Shown piece after piece: positions 3,846 to 52,001 of a stretch of 64,000 nucleotides of DNA. The notes beneath the pieces are model-generated. The model was not told the origin of the DNA. It saw nothing but the letters and a program-made list of their open reading frames with translations, and did not search any database. The DNA lies in the NCBI RefSeq assembly GCF_049337375.1, contig NZ_JBMPIV010000001.1; one strand, 5' to 3'. The position numbers and the translations under genes were made by a program. The number at the start of each line of letters is the position of its first letter. Positions within the stretch are counted from its first letter, which is position 1. This DNA is from Nannocystis pusilla (GTDB lineage Bacteria > Myxococcota_A > Polyangia > Nannocystales > Nannocystaceae).

Positions 3846-4454
3846 TCAGCAGTCGGCCTCGTCGGCGCCGTCGGGGCAGTCCTCGGCCATGTCGCACTTC
3901 CAGGTCGCCGGGATCTCGGTGCCGTTGGTGCAGACGAAGGCCTCGAGGCCGCAGCCGGTGACCTCGTCGGAGTTGTCGAGGCAGTCGGGGACCTCGTCGC
4001 AGGCCCAGGTCGCGGGGATCTCCTTCTTGTCGGTGCAAGTGAAGGCCTCGAGGCCGCAGCCGCTGACCTCGTCGGAGCCGTCGGGACAGTCAGGGTTCTC
4101 GTCGCAGACCCACGCGGGGTTCTCGAGCGCGGTGCCGTCGCTGCAGACGAAGCCGTCGCCGGTGGTGCCCGCGGTGGTGCCCGCGGTGGCCTCGGTCGTG
4201 CTGGTGGGGGCCTCGGTGGTCGTCGGCGCGCTGGTGCCGGTGTCGGTGCCGGTGCCGGTGGCGTCGGTGGTCTCGCCAGCCGTGCCGGTGCTGGTCGTGT
4301 CGTCCGTGGTGCCGGCGGTGCTTTCGGTCGTGGTCGTCTCGGGGCCGATGTTGGTGTCGGAGAGACCGCCGAGGTTGATCGTGCAGCCGGCTGTGGCGAC
4401 GCCCTGACTCATGAGCGCGGCGACGGACAAAAATTTGGCGAGGTCGATGTTCAT
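3846..4454 (-). CDS. lipoprotein with Thr/Gly-rich linker and three LDL-receptor class A-like Cys-rich modules
   Basis: Start MNIDLAKFLSVAALMSQGVATAGC has a signal peptide and lipobox. It is followed by a T/G/S/E-rich low-complexity linker and three modules of the form W(V/A/K)CDExPDCxDGSDE..GCGLEAF(T/V)C, which match the spacing of LDLa ligand-binding repeats. Confidence 0.6.
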   Translation of the reverse strand: MNIDLAKFLSVAALMSQGVATAGCTINLGGLSDTNIGPETTTTESTAGTTDDTTSTGTAGETTDATGTGTDTGTSAPTTTEAPTSTTEATAGTTAGTTGDGFVCSDGTALENPAWVCDENPDCPDGSDEVSGCGLEAFTCTDKKEIPATWACDEVPDCLDNSDEVTGCGLEAFVCTNGTEIPATWKCDMAEDCPDGADEADC

Positions 4455-6296: not shown

Positions 6297-6540
6297 TCCT
6301 GTCGACGACGGCCGCCCCGGGCGGCGCGTCGCGACTGTCACGAACGGTTGTGGACGATGCAGTCGACGACGGCCGCTGATGCGGAGCGTCGCGGGCTGTC
6401 ACGAGCGGTGGGTTGTGGGCGATGCAGTCGACGGCGGCCGCTGATGCGGAGCGTCGCGGGCTGTCACGAGCGGTGGGTTGTGGGCGATGCGGTCGACGAC
6501 GGCCGCTGATGCGGAGCGTCGCGGGCTGTCACGAGCGACG
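6297..6540. repeat. tandem repeat, about 65-bp unit x about 3.7 copies (gcagtcgacgacggccgctgatgcggagcgtcgcgggctgtcacgagcggtgggttgtgggcgat)
   Basis: Direct tandem copies are readable in the sequence and in the repeating spurious ORF translations (..TAADAERRGLSRAVGCGRC..). Lies between the tetR stop and the AKR start. Confidence 0.85.
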
Positions 6541-7196: not shown

Positions 7197-7344
7197 AATT
7201 AAATGTGAAATGGCGCGAAGGGCGCGGGTTTTTTGGAGGGCCGCCATACGCAGGCGTCCCACGCGAGGCCCGCGGTGAGGCTCGAACGAGGGACGGTGAC
7301 GCTTCATCGCCTGGTTCGACCGTGGCGGCGCGACGCGATGACGG

Positions 7345-7402
7345 AGAGCATGTTCTATTGAACATGCTCTCATAGACATGCTCGATCGGGCATGTCTCCG
7401 AG
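7345..7402. repeat. CATG-core repeat array including the perfect palindrome gagcatgttctattgaacatgctc followed by atagacatgctcgatcgggcatgtctcc
   Basis: Seen in sequence. Confidence 0.7.
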
Positions 7403-7521
7403 GACGATCCGCGAAGGAGCGGGCGGGCTCGCTCAGCGACCGCTGGCAGGGCCGGGGCGGAACGAGTCGACGAAGCGGCGCGGCTCTTCGGCGCGCTCGC
7501 GGGCCTGCGCGGGCCGGCCGG

Positions 7522-8871
7522 TCAGCGGCCGCTGGCGGGACCCGGGCGGAACGAGTCGACGAAGCGGCGCAGCTCGTCGGCGCGCTCGCGGGCCTGCGCG
7601 CGCGGGACCTCGCCGACGATCACGCAGGTGGCGTCGGCGACGGTGACCGCGCGGACGAGGCCGTGGGCCTTGTCGGTGGTGAGCGTGCCCTCGAGGCCGG
7701 CGGTGCCCTCGACCTCGATCGCACGCACGTCCTGGAGGCGCATGGTGTCGACGATGCCGCGCAGCTCGTCGGCGGGCGTGCGGCCGGCGACAGGCTTGGC
7801 CCTCGCGCTGCACGTGACGAGCCGCGAGACGTCGCCGGGCTGCTTGAGCGCGAGCATGCGGGTGGTCATGGCGACACCGTCGGCGGTGATGAAGCTCTGG
7901 CGCTGCGCGTTGGGCCGCCGGGGGAAGACGGCGGAGAAGCCCACGTCGGGGAAGGCCCAGCGGACCTGCGAGCCCTCGCGCCCGACCTCGACCGCCTGGA
8001 GGGCTCCGGCCGCGACCGCGGCGAGCACGGCCTCCTGCTGCTCGAGGTGCTCGCGGAGCTCCTCGGCGAGGGCGTCGACGCGGGGGTGCGGCTCGCGATC
8101 GGGGGCGAAGGCGGTGCGCAACGCGGCGAGCTCGGTGGCGGGGACGTCGGCGGCTGCGAGGCGATCGGCGAGGTCGAGGATCCGGTCGCGCTCCTCGGGG
8201 AGGAACCAGGGAGCGACGAGGTCGCCGAGCGGAGCGAAGGTGGCGACCGCGGCGGCAGGGGCGATGGTGTCCGAAAGGGAGAGGGCGCTGGCGAGGACGT
8301 CGTGGACGCCGCGCGCGAGGTGAAAGCGGGCCTCGACGAAGCTGCGGCGAGAGGCGTCGTCGCTCGCGAGTCGGTCGACACGAAGGGCGGACTCTTTAAA
8401 AAAGGCCGCGGCGACGGCGAGGTACTCGTGTCCGGATTCGCCGCGCGTGAGCGCCCGGGCGGCGTAGAGCTGCAAGATGTCGGCGAGGGCCAGGTGCAGC
8501 GCGGTGAGCTCGTCGGGGTTGGCGGTCTTGCGAACGGCGGCCGCGACGGCGTCGAGAGCGACGAGGTGCCGCAGCCATTCGGCGTCGGGTCCGTCGAGGC
8601 GCGGCAGCAGCTCGGGGCGCTCGCGCTCGAGGCGGACGAAGGCGTCGCGGACTCTTTGATAGTCCTGCGCGGTCCAGGGGGCGTCGGCGGCCGGGAGGTC
8701 GTAGGTCCGCCGTAGCTCGCTCGTCGGCTCGTCCTGCGGGGCGTCGACGCTGGCGGGAGCCGTGGTCTCGGCGCTGCGCCGGCAGGCCGCGAGCAGGACG
8801 AGGAGGAGCAACAGCCTTCGACCCGCGCCTTGCGAGCGACGGCGCGGCGCGAACGGGATCGAAGCGAGCAT
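7522..8871 (-). CDS. hypothetical lipoprotein
   Basis: ORF 7522-8934. Start at MLASIPFAPRRR..LLLLLVLLAAC (signal peptide plus lipobox). Alpha-helical Ala/Leu-rich sequence, no family recognised. Confidence 0.55.
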   Translation of the reverse strand: MLASIPFAPRRRSQGAGRRLLLLLVLLAACRRSAETTAPASVDAPQDEPTSELRRTYDLPAADAPWTAQDYQRVRDAFVRLERERPELLPRLDGPDAEWLRHLVALDAVAAAVRKTANPDELTALHLALADILQLYAARALTRGESGHEYLAVAAAFFKESALRVDRLASDDASRRSFVEARFHLARGVHDVLASALSLSDTIAPAAAVATFAPLGDLVAPWFLPEERDRILDLADRLAAADVPATELAALRTAFAPDREPHPRVDALAEELREHLEQQEAVLAAVAAGALQAVEVGREGSQVRWAFPDVGFSAVFPRRPNAQRQSFITADGVAMTTRMLALKQPGDVSRLVTCSARAKPVAGRTPADELRGIVDTMRLQDVRAIEVEGTAGLEGTLTTDKAHGLVRAVTVADATCVIVGEVPRAQARERADELRRFVDSFRPGPASGR

Positions 8872-8992
8872 CTGCGATGGACGATACAACGGCCGGGCCG
8901 GAGGCGCACGGACGAGGCACGCGAGGTGCCACAAAGCGGCGAGGCCAGGCGCTCACGGGCGGGACGCAGCGCGAGCGGGACGCGGGACGCCA

Positions 8993-9395
8993 GTGATGCG
9001 CCCCGCTGCGTTGCGTCGCTCGCAGCTCGAAAAAAAGCGGTCTTCGAGAGGGCCGAGTCATGCGCTGGGCTGCGTTGCGGGCGTCGCTCGCAGCTCCAAA
9101 AAGAACGGCCTTCGGAAGGCCGAGTCATGCGCTGGGCTGCGTTGCGGGCGTCGCTCGCAGCTCCAAAAAGAACGGCCTTCGGAAGGGCCGAGTCATGCGC
9201 TGGGCTGCGTTGCGGGCGTCGCTCGCAGCTCCAAAAAGAACGGCCTTCGGAAGGCCGAGTCATGCGCTGGGCCGCGTTGCGGGCGTCGCTCGCAGCCCGG
9301 AAAAAAAGCGGCCTTCCGGAGGAAGGACTCTGTCATGCGCTGCGCTGCGTTGCGGTGACTTCGTCGCTCGCTGCGCGAAGAAAAAGCGCGACCCT
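8993..9395. repeat. tandem repeat array, about 67-68-bp unit x about 6 (..gtcatgcgctgggctgcgttgcgggcgtcgctcgcagctccaaaaagaacggccttcggaaggccga..)
   Basis: Each unit contains two hairpins (gctgcg..cgcagc and ggccttcggaaggcc). On the minus strand each unit reads as hairpin then TTCTTTTT, i.e. terminator-like. Repeating translations (MRWAALRASLAAPKRTAFGR..) in the spurious ORFs confirm the periodicity. Confidence 0.85.
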
Positions 9396-9415
9396 CTTTT
9401 GGAAGAGGGTCGCGC
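9377..9415 (-). terminator. intrinsic terminator-like hairpin downstream of typA (GCGCGACCCTCTT-CCAA-AAGAGGGTCGCGC followed by TTTTTCTT on the minus strand)
   Basis: Perfect 13-bp stem plus T-run, 30 bp after the typA stop codon, on the transcribed strand. Confidence 0.6.
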
Positions 9416-9444
9416 TTCGTCGCGTGCGCGGGGTCGAGGTCGGC

Positions 9445-11310
<1,866 letters not shown>

Positions 11311-12313
11311 AGACGCCGTTTTGGGCGGCGGCGGGAAGTAAACCCGGCGGCGCTGCGCTGGCAAGTCGGCCCGATGTGAGCGGCACGGGCTTATTTTCCG
11401 GCGACAGGACGGTCACAGGAGTGAATCGGGGGCGAACAGAGGTCGGTTCGGTCGCCGCGCAGCCGCGAAAGCGGCCGTCCTCCGGCGATCGGCGTCGATC
11501 TGGGCCCGCATGACGGCCCATAGGTGCGGCTCGGCCAGGGTTGATCCCAGGCAATCGCGGGGATCGCGCGGAGGCACCGGGGCGGGCAGATCCGGCCCGC
11601 TCGGCTCGGGCGGCGCGCGCTCCGGCTCGGGCTCGGGCCGCGGCGCGACGTCCGGCAGACCTGGGTCGTCCGGAGACGGTAATTCACGGACCGGCGTGGG
11701 GGTGATCCGCAGTCGGCGACGGCGTTGCATGGGATCGGATCTGCACTGAACACCCAATCAGTGTCCAGCGATCACCGAGGCTGCCCTGAACTCTTGATCA
11801 GAGGCAGACAAACCAAATCGCGCGGCGCAAAACTGCGCGGACGAGCAGATAGGCCCCTGTAGCGGCCCGCGGGCCGTTTCGGGGCCGGGGCGGAGACGCG
11901 CCTGGAACGGCGCGAAGGGCGGGGAGCGGCAGCGCGCCGAGCTGGTCTTCGGGACAGGGAGATCGCCTCGGCAGGCGTCGCGGACGCCGGGATCGAGGCG
12001 CAGGGTTCCGCGCAATGGCGCGAGCCGCGTCGGCTCACCGGGCGCGACCATGGCGAGCCGGCGAAAGCGACGGGCGCCGCGAGCGCCGGGCCCCGCTCGA
12101 CGGCGCTGCACAGGGCTGAACAGGCGTGGGCGGTGCGGGGCTGCGGGGGGCGAGCCTCGGGTGCTGTACGTCGGCGACGCCGCCGGCGACGGCGACTACA
12201 GCAGCGCGGAGCTCGGGGCCAGGACGGTCGACGCCCGGGTCAGCGCGAGCGCCGGTCGGCCCGGTGCACGACCTCTGGCCTGCTCGGGGGCGAGTCACCC
12301 GCGAGGGCGATTT

Positions 12314-12392
12314 CGGGGCATGTCTCGGAGGACATGTCCCGGCGGCGCGGCGCTTGGGGACATGTCTCGGAGGACATGTCCTGCGCGCCCTG
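12314..12392. repeat. CATG-core 14-bp repeat array (ggggcatgtctcggaggacatgtccc ... ggggacatgtctcggaggacatgtcct) abutting the rlmE stop
   Basis: Seen in sequence. Confidence 0.8.
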
Positions 12393-16305: not shown

Positions 16306-16376
16306 GTGGGGCATGTCGGGACGGACATGTCGGGATGGGCATGGCCGGAGGGGCATGTTCCGAGGGACATGAGACG
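16306..16376. repeat. CATG-core 14-bp repeat array (ggggcatgtcggga cggacatgtcggga tgggcatggccgga ggggcatgttccga gggacatgagacg)
   Basis: Five phased 14-bp units, seen in sequence. Confidence 0.85.
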
Positions 16377-33530: not shown

Positions 33531-35114
33531 TCAGCGCGGCTCGTCGTCGGGGCAGACGAAGCGCTCGAAGCGGCGGGCGAGCACCGAGTCGGGCAGGCGC
33601 GCGGCCAGGCGCTGGGCGGCGGCCGCGGCGTCGGCGAGGCGGCCTTGCAGGCACAGGAGCTCGACCCCGGCGGCCTCGCGGGCGTCGAGGAGGGCGCCGC
33701 TCGGGAACTGGCGCGCGTGGGCGTCGAGGAGCTGGGCGGCGCCCGCCGGGTCGCGGGCGTCGAGGCGGGCGCGGGCGCGGTCGAGGAGGCCGACCTCGCG
33801 GGCGAGGTCGTCGCGGGCGGGCGAGCGCGCGGATGTCTCTCGGGACAGCAGCTGATCGTAGGCCGGGCGGGTGAGGGAAGCGGGGGAGGCTGTCCTCGGG
33901 GATAGGTCGGGCGCGGGGCTCGGCGACAGGGGGGCGGTCGCGCGGGTCCACAGGTCGGCGATCTGCGCGCGCAGGTGGGCGAACGAGAACGGGGAGGTGG
34001 GGAGCTGGAGCGCGGCCGCGGGCGAGGCTGGCTCTCGGGACATGTCGGCGGTCACCGGGGAGGCTGGCTCTCGGGACATGTCGGAGGTCACCCGGGATGC
34101 TGGCTCTCGGGACATGTCGGAGATCGGTCGATGGACTGTCTTTCGAGACATGTCCTCGCGCGAGGGATAGGCTGTCTCTCGGGTCGCGTCGGAGGGCCGG
34201 AGAGAGGCTGTCTCTCGAGACGCGCCGGAAGACCGGGGAGAAGCTGTCTCGCGGGACACGTCCGAGGGCCGGGGAGAGGCTGTCTCTCGGGCCGCGTCGA
34301 CGGGCCGGGGAGAGGCTGTCTCGCGGGACATGCCGCCGGTCGCGCGGGCGCTGGCTGTCCTCGCGGACAGGTCCTCGACCTGGGCGGCGGCCCGGCCCGG
34401 GGCCTGGCGGGGGGCGACCGCGACGACGGTGGTCGCGCCGGCGACGACGAGGGTGGTCATGACGCCGGCGCGCGCGGTCGTCCATGCGGCGGCGATCGTG
34501 GCGAGCTTGCCGGGGCCGAACAGCGGGACCATCACGGCCCAGGTGCGCGAGGCGGCGCCTTCCGGGGGGGCCTCGCGGCGGCGGGTTTCGGCGACCTCGG
34601 CGGCCAGCAGCTCGGGGCTGGCGGCCAGCTCGAGCAGGCGGGCGCGCGCGAGCCGGAGCCGCGAGTAGACGGTGTTGAGCGGCAGCTCGAGCTCGGCGGC
34701 GATCTCGGGGCCGCTCATGCCGAGCAGCTCGGTCAGCTCCCACACCTCGCGGGTGCCGCGAGGCAGGCCGGCGAGCAGGCGCTCGAGCAGGCGGGCGGCG
34801 TCGTGGCGCTCCTGCGGGGCCTCGCCGACGTGGCCGGTGAGGTCGCCGAGGGCGGCGATCCGGCGGGTCCGGCGGGCGACGCCGCGGTGCCAGTGCGAGG
34901 CGACGCGGCGGGTGACGCCGTACAGCCAGGCGCGCGCCGAGACCTGGTAGTGGACCTGGTCGAAGCGGCGGTAGGCGGTGAGGAAGACGTCCTGGACCAC
35001 GTCGTCGCGGGCGGCCGCGGGGACGCCGAAGTGCTTCGCGGCCGACCACACGAAGTGGAACTCGCGGTCGTAGATGGCGCGAAAACGCGCTTCCCGGTCG
35101 GTGGCGAGCAGCAT
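33531..35114 (-). CDS. ECF sigma-70 factor fused in-frame to a transmembrane anti-sigma-like C-terminal region carrying a 12-aa tandem repeat
   Basis: Start MLLATDREARFRAIYDREF. Sigma region 2 (DDVVQDVFLTAYRRFD) and region 4 (GLPRGTREVWELTELLGMSGPEIAAELELPLNTVYSRL). Then a TM segment (LATIAAAWTTARAGVMTTLVVAGATTVVAVA), about 8.5 copies of a 12-aa repeat (S/TRETASPRPSDA -> DMSREPASPVTA) and an Ala/Leu-rich C-terminal domain. Confidence 0.7.
   Translation of the reverse strand: MLLATDREARFRAIYDREFHFVWSAAKHFGVPAAARDDVVQDVFLTAYRRFDQVHYQVSARAWLYGVTRRVASHWHRGVARRTRRIAALGDLTGHVGEAPQERHDAARLLERLLAGLPRGTREVWELTELLGMSGPEIAAELELPLNTVYSRLRLARARLLELAASPELLAAEVAETRRREAPPEGAASRTWAVMVPLFGPGKLATIAAAWTTARAGVMTTLVVAGATTVVAVAPRQAPGRAAAQVEDLSARTASARATGGMSRETASPRPVDAARETASPRPSDVSRETASPRSSGASRETASLRPSDATRETAYPSREDMSRKTVHRPISDMSREPASRVTSDMSREPASPVTADMSREPASPAAALQLPTSPFSFAHLRAQIADLWTRATAPLSPSPAPDLSPRTASPASLTRPAYDQLLSRETSARSPARDDLAREVGLLDRARARLDARDPAGAAQLLDAHARQFPSGALLDAREAAGVELLCLQGRLADAAAAAQRLAARLPDSVLARRFERFVCPDDEPR
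34022..34335. repeat. 36-bp tandem repeat x about 8.5 inside the sigma/anti-sigma CDS (..ggctggctctcgggacatgtcggcggtcaccgggga..), each unit containing the gggacatgtc core
   Basis: Seen in sequence. Encodes the 12-aa peptide repeat. Confidence 0.85.
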
Positions 35115-42353: not shown

Positions 42354-42420
42354 GGTGAAACTTCGGGGCAGGTTGTCGGGGACAGGTGCTCGGGGACAGG
42401 TACGCGAGGACAGGTGCGAA
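42348..42420. repeat. degenerate repeat array in the gcvT-gcvH spacer (ggggacaggtgctc ggggacaggtacgc gaggacaggtgcga)
   Basis: Three phased 14-bp units with CAGG replacing CATG. Confidence 0.6.
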
Positions 42421-50097: not shown

Positions 50098-52001
50098 GCG
50101 GGGGGGAAAGAGTACCCCTCGGCGAGCGCGTTGGCGACCTCGGTATAGGCGTAATCGCTGACGCGTTCGTCGATGCGCATGCGCAGCAGCGCCTTGCTGC
50201 GGCAGGTGGCCGCGAAGAAGAACGCGCGATCGTCGGCGCACGCGCGCGCGAGCGCCGGATCGGCGGCCCAGCGGTCCCACTCGCGCTGGCAGATCCGCCG
50301 CACCGCGGGCCACAGGACGTCGGGAGCGGGGCCGCCGGCGTCGTCGACCCAACCGATCACAGCCGCGAGGTGGGCGTGTACGAGGGTGTGCAGCAGCTTG
50401 CCCTGCGCCTCGGCGAGGTCGGAGGTCAGGGTGAAGGAGTCGGGCGCGAGCGCGGGAGCGTGGCCGGCCGCGGCCAGCCGCCCGCGGTGGAGCCGCACGC
50501 CGCCGAGGTCGCGGACGACGAAGCCGCAGGGGCGCCCGGCGTGGACGAGGAGGGTGTTTTGCAGGTGCGCCTCGAGGGCGACGCCGTGGGCGGTGAGCAG
50601 GCGCAGGGCCGCGGGGACGAGGAGGTCGAGGTAGTCGCGGAAGAAGGCCGCGAGGCGCGCGCGCAGATCGCCGGGGTAGTCGGCGGCGAGCTCGCGCAGC
50701 ACGAGATCGCCGCCGGGCCGGCGCTCGCCGAGAGCGGCGCAGACGACGAGCTGCGGAGTGCGCGATTGGACATGCTTCAAAAAATCTGTCGCTCGGGACA
50801 GGTCCTCGGGGGCATGTCGTAAGGGGAATGTCGCGGAGGACAGGTCGGAAGGGGCAGGTGCGCCGGCGGGCGAGTCCGGAGCGGTCGGCGTCGCGTGGGA
50901 CGGGTCGGCGGGGGCGGCGAGGTCGGCGTGGAGCCGTCGGGCGAGGGCGGCGGGGTCGGGGCGGAGGACGACGCCGAGCTGGCCGGCGTCGGCGCCGTGG
51001 CGCGAGTGCAGGCCGGCGGCGGCGAGGTCGGGCTGGATCTGCAGGCCGCGGCGGGTCTGCGGGTCGGCGGCCTGGATCGCGGCCAGGAGGGCGGCGATCG
51101 CCGGGCCGTTGTGCACCGAGGCGGGCGAGACCTGGCGCCGCGCGCTGGTGGTGTGGATGTCGACGGCGAGCTTGAGGTGCAGCGCCGGCGCGGCGAGGGC
51201 GACGGTGCGCAGGCTGAGCAGGGCCCGCGCATGGAGCGGGGGCAGGCCGGCGGGGCGGACCTCGCGGCCCCACAGCGGGCCGAGCAGGCGCGGGAGGCGG
51301 CGCAGCTGGAGGGCGTGGACGGGGATGCGGACCAGGCCGGGCGGCGGGGCGGGGAAGAGGGCGCGGGCGAGGTCGGCATAGACGGCCGGCTCGGCCAGCT
51401 GGGCGTGCTCGGCGGCGACGTCGACGGCGTGGACTGCCGCCTGGGCCAGGAGGTCGGGGCCGTGGCGCAGGTTCTCCCAGGCGCGCAGGCCGAGCCGGGT
51501 CTTGCTCATCGGGTGCCACGGGTGGCCGTCGACGACCAGGTTCTCGGGGTCGAGCGGGGCGGGCCACGGCTGTCCTTCGGAGCATGTCCGATGGCGCAGG
51601 TCGGCGGCGAGGCGGGCGAGGGCGAGGTTCCAGCGGCTGTCGGCGAGCTCGCGCGCGATCCGGGCGCGGGCGGCGGGGGCGAGCGCGGGCAGGAGGCGCG
51701 GGAGCAGGTCGGGGAGGTCGGGGAGGTCGGCGCCGTCGAGGTCGGCGGCGTGCAGCTCGAAGGCCCGGCGCCGGCGCAGCGGGAGGCTCAAGGAACATGT
51801 GCGAAGGGACATGTCCTGGAGGTCGAACTCGACGAGGCGCTCGCGCGCGCAGGCGAGGACGAGGCGAGCGCCGATCGCCTGGGTGGCGGCCCGCCAGTGG
51901 GCGGCGAGCTCGCCGGGCGCGGGGCGGGCGCCGAACGCGGCAGGCACGGCCCGGGCGGCGAAGGCGAGGAAGCGGTCGCGCTCGGTGGATGGGGTGCTCA
52001 C
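50094..52001 (-). CDS. IucA/IucC-family (NRPS-independent siderophore synthetase-like) adenylating ligase with two in-frame repeat-derived insertions
   Basis: Conserved ..[14 protein letters not shown].., ..VHALQ.., ..[16 protein letters not shown].. and ..[11 protein letters not shown].. regions. Proposed GTG start at 52001 overlaps the stop of the upstream gene (GTGA). Inserts at 50767-50860 and 51790-51822 are CATG-repeat arrays. Confidence 0.65.

Follow-up and report, generated by a model that had tools for sequence, protein, structure and literature searches.

The spacer downstream of typA in Nannocystis pusilla contains a tandem array of six head-to-tail units, U0–U5, each 64–85 nt long, at positions 8993–9417 of the window, as we call the whole 64-kb stretch of DNA analyzed here. 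The array is most probably a locus-specific minisatellite, a variable-number tandem repeat (VNTR), that has grown from the intrinsic terminator of typA. Sequence comparisons indicate that the unit adjoining typA, U0, is the real terminator of this gene, because its structure is retained among Nannocystis species, with compensatory changes, and that U1–U5 are paralogues of the same terminator module.

Organization of the array and its flanking genes

The array is located between typA and a gene encoding a lipoprotein-like protein. The two genes are co-directional, and the spacer separating them is about 573 bp long. The features of the locus, listed in the direction of typA transcription, are:

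typA (translational GTPase TypA/BipA), 9445–11310, minus strand: match to TIGR01394 with E 3e-238, above the curated cut-off
U0, 9332–9417, minus strand: 85 nt, predicted resident typA intrinsic terminator; hairpin arms 9403–9417 and 9384–9398 with loop CCAA, hairpin A −28.3 kcal/mol; T-tract TTTTTCTT to about 9376; hairpin-B module GCGCAGCGAGCGACG...GCGCATGAC 3′ of the T-tract
U1, 9259–9331, minus strand: 73 nt; hairpin CCTTCC-TCC-GGAAGG, T7, hairpin B GGGCTGCG..CGCGGCCC; terminator site 9326–9312; hairpin A −7.5 and hairpin B −19.9 kcal/mol; identity 71% to U0, 82% to U2, and 90–95% to the second unit of loci L017 and L020
U2, 9192–9258, minus strand: 67 nt; hairpin CGGCCTTC-CGA-AGGCCG, tract TTCTTTTT, hairpin B GCTGCG..CGCAGC; terminator site 9257–9241 with seven pairs; hairpin A −9.6 and hairpin B −17.0 kcal/mol
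U3, 9124–9191, minus strand: 68 nt; same as U2 and U4 with one additional C in hairpin A (99% identity); hairpin A −8.0 kcal/mol; site 9190–9173 in the terminator scan
U4, 9057–9123, minus strand: 67 nt; 100% identical to U2; hairpin A −9.6 kcal/mol; terminator site 9122–9106
U5, 8993–9056, minus strand: 64 nt; distal and most diverged derived copy; T7 retained, hairpin A largely gone (−1.2 kcal/mol), hairpin B shortened (−10.3 kcal/mol); identity 81% to U2 and 92% to the last unit of L017
Non-repeated spacer, 8872–8992, minus strand: contains the box GTTGTATCGTCC, with TATCGT at 8886–8881
Downstream lipoprotein-like gene, 7522–8871, minus strand: hypothetical protein of 449 aa with the lipoprotein-type signal ..LLVLLAAC..

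The stop codon of typA occupies positions 9445–9447, and translation probably begins at the ATG at 11310, which gives a protein of 621 aa; the mechanically defined open reading frame (ORF) reaches further upstream, to a TTG at 11364. The gene has a GC3 of 0.945, and TypA and its counterpart in N. pusilla Na p29 share 100% protein identity. The lipoprotein-like gene lies within an enclosing ORF at 7522–8934 (470 aa, GC3 0.91), and its product is 100% identical to the N. pusilla hypothetical protein P0001. Only 11 relatives of this protein were found, four of which come from read archives or metagenomes, and all the named ones belong to Nannocystis; it has no match in Pfam or NCBIfam, in scans that covered six to eight ORFs close to the array.

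The box GTTGTATCGTCC (window 8881–8890) is positioned 8–10 nt before the ATG of the lipoprotein-like gene in all the Nannocystis species examined (loci L001–L006 and L017–L022), with no Shine-Dalgarno sequence beside it. The box looks like the −10 element of an mRNA with little or no leader, and the lipoprotein-like gene appears to use it as its own promoter just before the ATG. A scan with the sigma-70 consensus identified no promoter-like site in or beside the array, including positions 8872–8992.

On the minus strand, each unit can be divided into hairpin A, a T-tract, hairpin B of the GCTGCG..CGCAGC type, and the motif GCGCAT(G/C)AC. Tandem Repeats Finder detects a period of 67 with 5.0 copies, 91% matches, and a score of 516 at positions 9013–9355, and the diverged sixth unit adjoining typA was recovered at 9332–9402 with a profile of the unit (E 1.7e-14). 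A 38-nt core of the unit is present four times and a 25-nt core three times in the window, all inside the array, and none of these occurrences is expected by chance, as judged from 100 dinucleotide-preserving shuffles. Hairpin A (GGCCTTCCGAAGGCC type) is followed on its 3′ side by the T-run TTCTTTTT or TTTTTTT, which is present on the minus strand only, and the energies of hairpin B range from −10 to −20 kcal/mol across the units. The hairpins A of U1–U4 have stems of 5–7 bp and T-tracts with 6–7 T in 8 positions, and these four units are flagged by a simple terminator scan, which finds 6 sites in 6 kb where 2.0 are expected. U0 is 66–71% identical to the other units; the central units U2–U4 are 99–100% identical to one another, and those at the edges have diverged.

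The units abut with nothing unique between them, in contrast to CRISPR repeats, which are separated by unique spacers. Their head-to-tail arrangement and their length agree with those of minisatellites and VNTRs, the units of which measure roughly 10–100 bp. Spurious ORFs across the array encode repeating peptides with a period of 45 aa, because two successive units of 67 and 68 nt add up to 135 nt; gene callers should ignore them. Assemblies are also likely to collapse or expand at the array.

The hairpin of U0 (9384–9417) is formed by two 15-nt arms that are 100% complementary and connected by a 4-nt loop, and it is followed by T5CTT. U0 begins 27 nt 3′ of the typA stop codon, and is therefore the first element in the direction of transcription, with the five weaker copies behind it. 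At least five Nannocystis species, represented by 11 alleles, keep this hairpin and the T5 run 3′ of typA. In the alignment of these alleles, two of the 14 predicted pairs carry compensatory changes on both sides, and only one assembly, which contains homopolymer errors, departs from the T5 run. U0 thus has the G+C-rich hairpin and the U-tract 3′ of the stop codon that characterize an intrinsic terminator, and this structure is conserved in the orthologues. No tandem duplication was found at the other terminator-like sites in the 64-kb window.

An initial annotation of this DNA had described about six 67-bp tandem repeats at 8993–9425, each with two stem-loops, and a run of T on the minus strand after the hairpin. 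Tandem Repeats Finder and the unit profile together confirm the six units, the fold energies support two stem-loops per unit with hairpin A largely lost in U5, and the T-run is indeed restricted to the minus strand. The annotation had also warned of spurious ORFs with repeating peptides, which are those with the 45-aa repeats. Its description of a near-perfect terminator at the end of the array is correct as to the strength of the hairpin, which has 15-nt arms, and needs revision as to its place, since this terminator comes first, not last, in the direction of typA. The suggestion of an iterated terminator captures both the anatomy and the origin of the array, as every unit is paralogous to the typA terminator.

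Copy number and origin of the array

We compared the spacers of orthologous loci from representative genomes and of the loci encoding relatives of the lipoprotein-like protein, in which the flanking genes are shared. The alleles are:

Window allele: spacer of 573 nt, 6 units
N. pusilla GCA_049060185 (L017): spacer of 426 nt, 4 units
Logan contigs L019 and L020: spacer of 224 nt in L019, L020 ending at the contig edge; 2 units each
N. pusilla Na p29 (L001): spacer of 194 nt, U0 and a truncated U1, about 1.7 units
N. pusilla CP185339 (L018), complete genome: spacer of 279 nt, 1 unit
L021 and L022: spacers of 148 and 129 nt, 1 unit each
Nannocystis sp. RBIL2 (L002): spacer of 386 nt, 2 units, the second degenerate
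N. exedens (L006): spacer of 311 nt, 1 unit
N. punicea (L003) and N. radixulma (L005): spacers of 322 nt each, terminator only

The number of units at the orthologous spacer varies among strains of the N. pusilla group (1, about 1.7, 2, 4, and 6), as counted in assemblies of mixed quality, which include L017 with its homopolymer errors and the short-read Logan contigs. Such differences among close strains (1, 2, 4, and 6 units) make the array a VNTR. Its central units are nearly identical, its edge units have diverged, and its copy number depends on the strain, a combination that points to a minisatellite altered by slippage or unequal exchange. When units are paired by position with those of L017, U0 is 95% and U1 90% identical to its counterpart, U2–U4 are 96–97% identical to the second derived unit (u2), and U5 is 92% identical to the third (u3); single-base differences in L017 are unreliable because of its likely long-read errors. 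From this positional orthology, the window carries two additional central units, which amount to 135 bp.

Homopolymers are systematically short throughout the L017 locus (GCA_049060185.1), for example TTT in place of TTTTT in the typA terminator, which looks like uncorrected long-read error. The lipoprotein-like gene of L017 is called 20 aa short.

The following sequence of events would account for the array. Units may be gained and lost through slipped-strand mispairing or unequal recombination between the repeats, and stalling of replication by the hairpins may favor such changes. Transcripts of typA are expected to end mainly at U0, and U1–U4 would act as weak intrinsic terminators, which at most provide a fail-safe for read-through and insulate the downstream gene. 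The extra copies are probably near-neutral and not kept by selection. Their decay can be observed in the stem of U5, in the second unit of RBIL2, which preserves the 67-nt spacing but has lost the T-tract and the palindrome, and in copies 2 and 3 of the N. bainbridge array described below. The T-tracts and stems retained in the N. pusilla units may accordingly be read as a sign of youth.

The same typA terminator has been amplified independently in N. bainbridge (L004 7948–8068), where the array has a period of 48 bp and 2.5 copies. Its first copy is intact (−28.3 kcal/mol, T5), and copies 2 and 3 are without the T-run and have lost most of the stem. The typA terminator has therefore been amplified twice independently, as 67-nt units in the N. 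pusilla group and as 48-nt units in N. bainbridge, which may be compatible with a hairpin-driven mutational hot spot, recurrent selection, or both. A further array, of 42 bp × 3.1 with 96% matches, is located about 90 nt past the typA stop codon in a metagenome-assembled genome of a distant deltaproteobacterium (L015 1324–1452). Its sequence is unrelated to the Nannocystis unit and contains no T-tract, and its position is probably a coincidence.

Alternative explanations

The array could instead be a stack of terminators maintained by selection, which insulates the downstream gene from typA, on this view a highly transcribed gene whose read-through would be harmful, or in which the number of units tunes read-through. 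We regard this explanation as rather unlikely, although several properties of the array agree with it. Four of the five derived units qualify as terminators by simple criteria, and do so on the typA strand only; a T-tract is present in every N. pusilla unit despite the window G+C content of 72%, and U1–U4 keep their stems. The lipoprotein-like gene has the same direction as typA, and the terminator was amplified a second time in N. bainbridge. Furthermore, hairpin B of U0 pairs slightly less well than its derived copies, an unexpected result under pure decay. However, U0 alone is very strong (−28 kcal/mol) and conserved, and a single unit suffices in several strains of the N. pusilla group and in other species. 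The older extra copies have lost both stem and T-tract, and the near-identity of the central units indicates a very recent gain rather than long maintenance. It is also unlikely, and slightly more so, that intrinsic terminators serve as seeds of minisatellites in Nannocystis and that copy number forms a heritable, fast-changing dial on typA read-through into the lipoprotein-like gene. If the number of units did affect read-through, the locus would offer a simple natural system for the study of terminator stacking.

It is quite improbable that the array binds a protein through GCTGCG..CGCAGC or GCGAGCGACG, acts as a cis-regulatory RNA or DNA element for the downstream gene, or is the source of a small RNA. 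The array lies 120–450 nt upstream of the start codon of the lipoprotein-like gene, and GCGAGCGACG is found at a fixed distance past the terminator in the N. exedens, RBIL2, and N. pusilla alleles. The stem of hairpin B varies while its pairing is kept, as seen by eye in GCTGCG/CGCAGC, GCGATG/CATCGC, and GGTGA/TCACC, but the units are paralogues, so that these counts are not independent. Copy number and the flanking spacer vary freely among close strains, and the array has no promoter-like site within it or adjoining it.

The evidence from RNA structure likewise argues against a regulatory element. A search of the whole window against Rfam at the gathering threshold gave no match. In a permissive search of positions 8850–9500, models of hairpin small RNAs scored 11–21 bits against thresholds of 45–162, and these candidates were rejected as noise. 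The fold z-scores of the array region are −6.1 and −5.3 for the two strands. Folding of the minus-strand transcript, which the initial annotation had proposed as a check, thus gives a strongly negative score, but the two strands fold about equally well. We do not count the z-scores as evidence for an RNA, because the repeats pair with one another and both strands behave alike. The annotation had also considered a structured RNA tail on the typA transcript, which is unlikely: with U0 placed ahead of the other five units, transcription of typA should mostly stop short of the array, both strands fold alike, and Rfam contains no matching family.

The unit appears to be confined to this one spacer. 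There is no copy of it at three or fewer mismatches elsewhere in the 64-kb window, and a profile search of 287 kb, which comprised the window and the fetched Nannocystis loci, produced matches in the typA spacer only. A degenerate pattern fitting each of the six units had no hits in 185,579 representative genomes, including several Nannocystis genomes of 11–13 Mb, in scans that required 24 exact bases and ran on genomes other than the source genome, which was covered over the 64 kb of the window, so that diverged copies could escape. The sole match in the metagenome collection was dismissed as chance, since it is located within a coding region of a contig with lower G+C content, beside a glutamine-amidotransferase-like gene. 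All the units are direct repeats with spacings of 64–78 nt, in a single orientation, whereas BIMEs alternate.

The REP/BIME-like mosaic put forward in the initial annotation, or a miniature transposable element inserted after typA, is therefore a highly improbable source of the array: the units are palindromic, extragenic, and placed at the 3′ end of a gene, like many REP clusters, but they share ancestry with the resident typA terminator, which is conserved in the genus, they are all direct repeats, no copy was found outside the spacer in the window, the 287 kb, or the genome and metagenome scans with 24 exact bases, and the second array nearby is built from an unrelated unit.

Neighboring repeats and comparison with known systems

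Tandem arrays that vary among strains are also present in the two spacers next to that of typA, and their units are unrelated to the typA unit. A 65-bp × 3.7 array at 6301–6537 of the window lies between a gene of the TetR family (stop 6558, minus strand) and a gene for an aldo-keto reductase (start 6286), and ends at the ribosome-binding site of the latter. Elsewhere in N. pusilla it has 1.9, 2.9, and 3.5 copies (L001, L017, and L018, respectively). Kinship of the 65-bp unit with the 67-bp unit was rejected, as their alignment score falls within the range of shuffled sequences. An 89-bp × 2 duplication at 7419–7600 straddles the stop codon of the lipoprotein-like gene (7522). Na p29 has a 79-bp × 1.9 version of it (L001 9392–9541), and its annotated product of 516 aa has a C-terminus that is frameshifted and extended relative to the protein of 449 aa. 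We rejected the reading of the 516 aa as an N-terminal extension through the typA-spacer array; the protein shows a C-terminal frameshift and extension that go with another duplication. The end of a protein may thus have been altered in Na p29 by a small tandem duplication.

Short arrays with a period of 14 bp (or 28 bp) occur around motifs that contain CATG, among them GAGCATGCTTGAAA and GGGCATGTCGGGAC. Their positions are:

14/28-bp arrays in the window: 2121–2177, 7340–7400, 12319–12380, 16309–16371, 42363–42417, and 50809–50859
14/28-bp arrays in other loci: L002 648–711, L006 12838–12913, and L021 2767–2909

The 14-bp arrays that we inspected, such as the one upstream of the TetR-family gene, lie in apparent promoter or operator regions and could be arrays of binding sites for one family of regulators. 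The window additionally contains a 36-bp × 8.8 array with 75% matches at 34014–34329 and a 105-bp × 2.4 repeat at 3857–4112. The latter is present in all the Nannocystis loci without indels, and therefore probably encodes a repeated protein domain.

Nannocystis spacers seem generally prone to tandem duplication of 50–90 bp, which suggests that the very large, G+C-rich genomes of this genus readily accumulate intergenic minisatellites. The typA spacer would represent a clear case of a terminator that was duplicated in tandem and then decayed. In the literature on Nannocystis, we found no description of tandem repeats and no use of them for typing, and a search on tandem terminators returned nothing useful. 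The array and the two neighboring variable arrays are a possible marker for typing strains of N. pusilla.

REP and BIME elements are extragenic and palindromic, are frequently found at the 3′ end of a gene, and can stabilize or terminate transcripts. A further hallmark is their association with a REP-associated tyrosine transposase (RAYT) encoded in the same genome. The REPs of enterobacteria and pseudomonads have hundreds of dispersed copies, and BIMEs combine copies of alternating orientation with specific linkers. The Nannocystis unit differs from them in being restricted to a single locus, with all its copies in the same direction.

The array resembles tandem fail-safe terminators in its series of hairpins and U-tracts on the transcribed strand, with a strong terminator first and weaker ones after it. 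Tandem terminators known so far are usually pairs or triplets of unrelated sequences. In contrast, the members of the Nannocystis stack are recent mutual paralogues that vary in number among strains, and the older ones are decaying.

The mycobacterial interspersed repetitive units (MIRUs) may contain short ORFs that reach into the genes on either side. The Nannocystis period of 67 nt is not a multiple of three. A close likeness exists to the VNTR loci of Mycobacterium tuberculosis (ETR, QUB, and MIRU-VNTR), which likewise are head-to-tail repeats of tens of bases, located in co-directional spacers and variable among strains. MIRUs are minisatellites with copy-number variation (PMC3635867), composed of 46–101-bp tandem repeats that form a related family at 41 loci in strain H37Rv (PMC3914561). 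The MIRU family is thus scattered over 41 loci (PMC3914561), whereas the Nannocystis unit is confined to one spacer and is derived from the local terminator.
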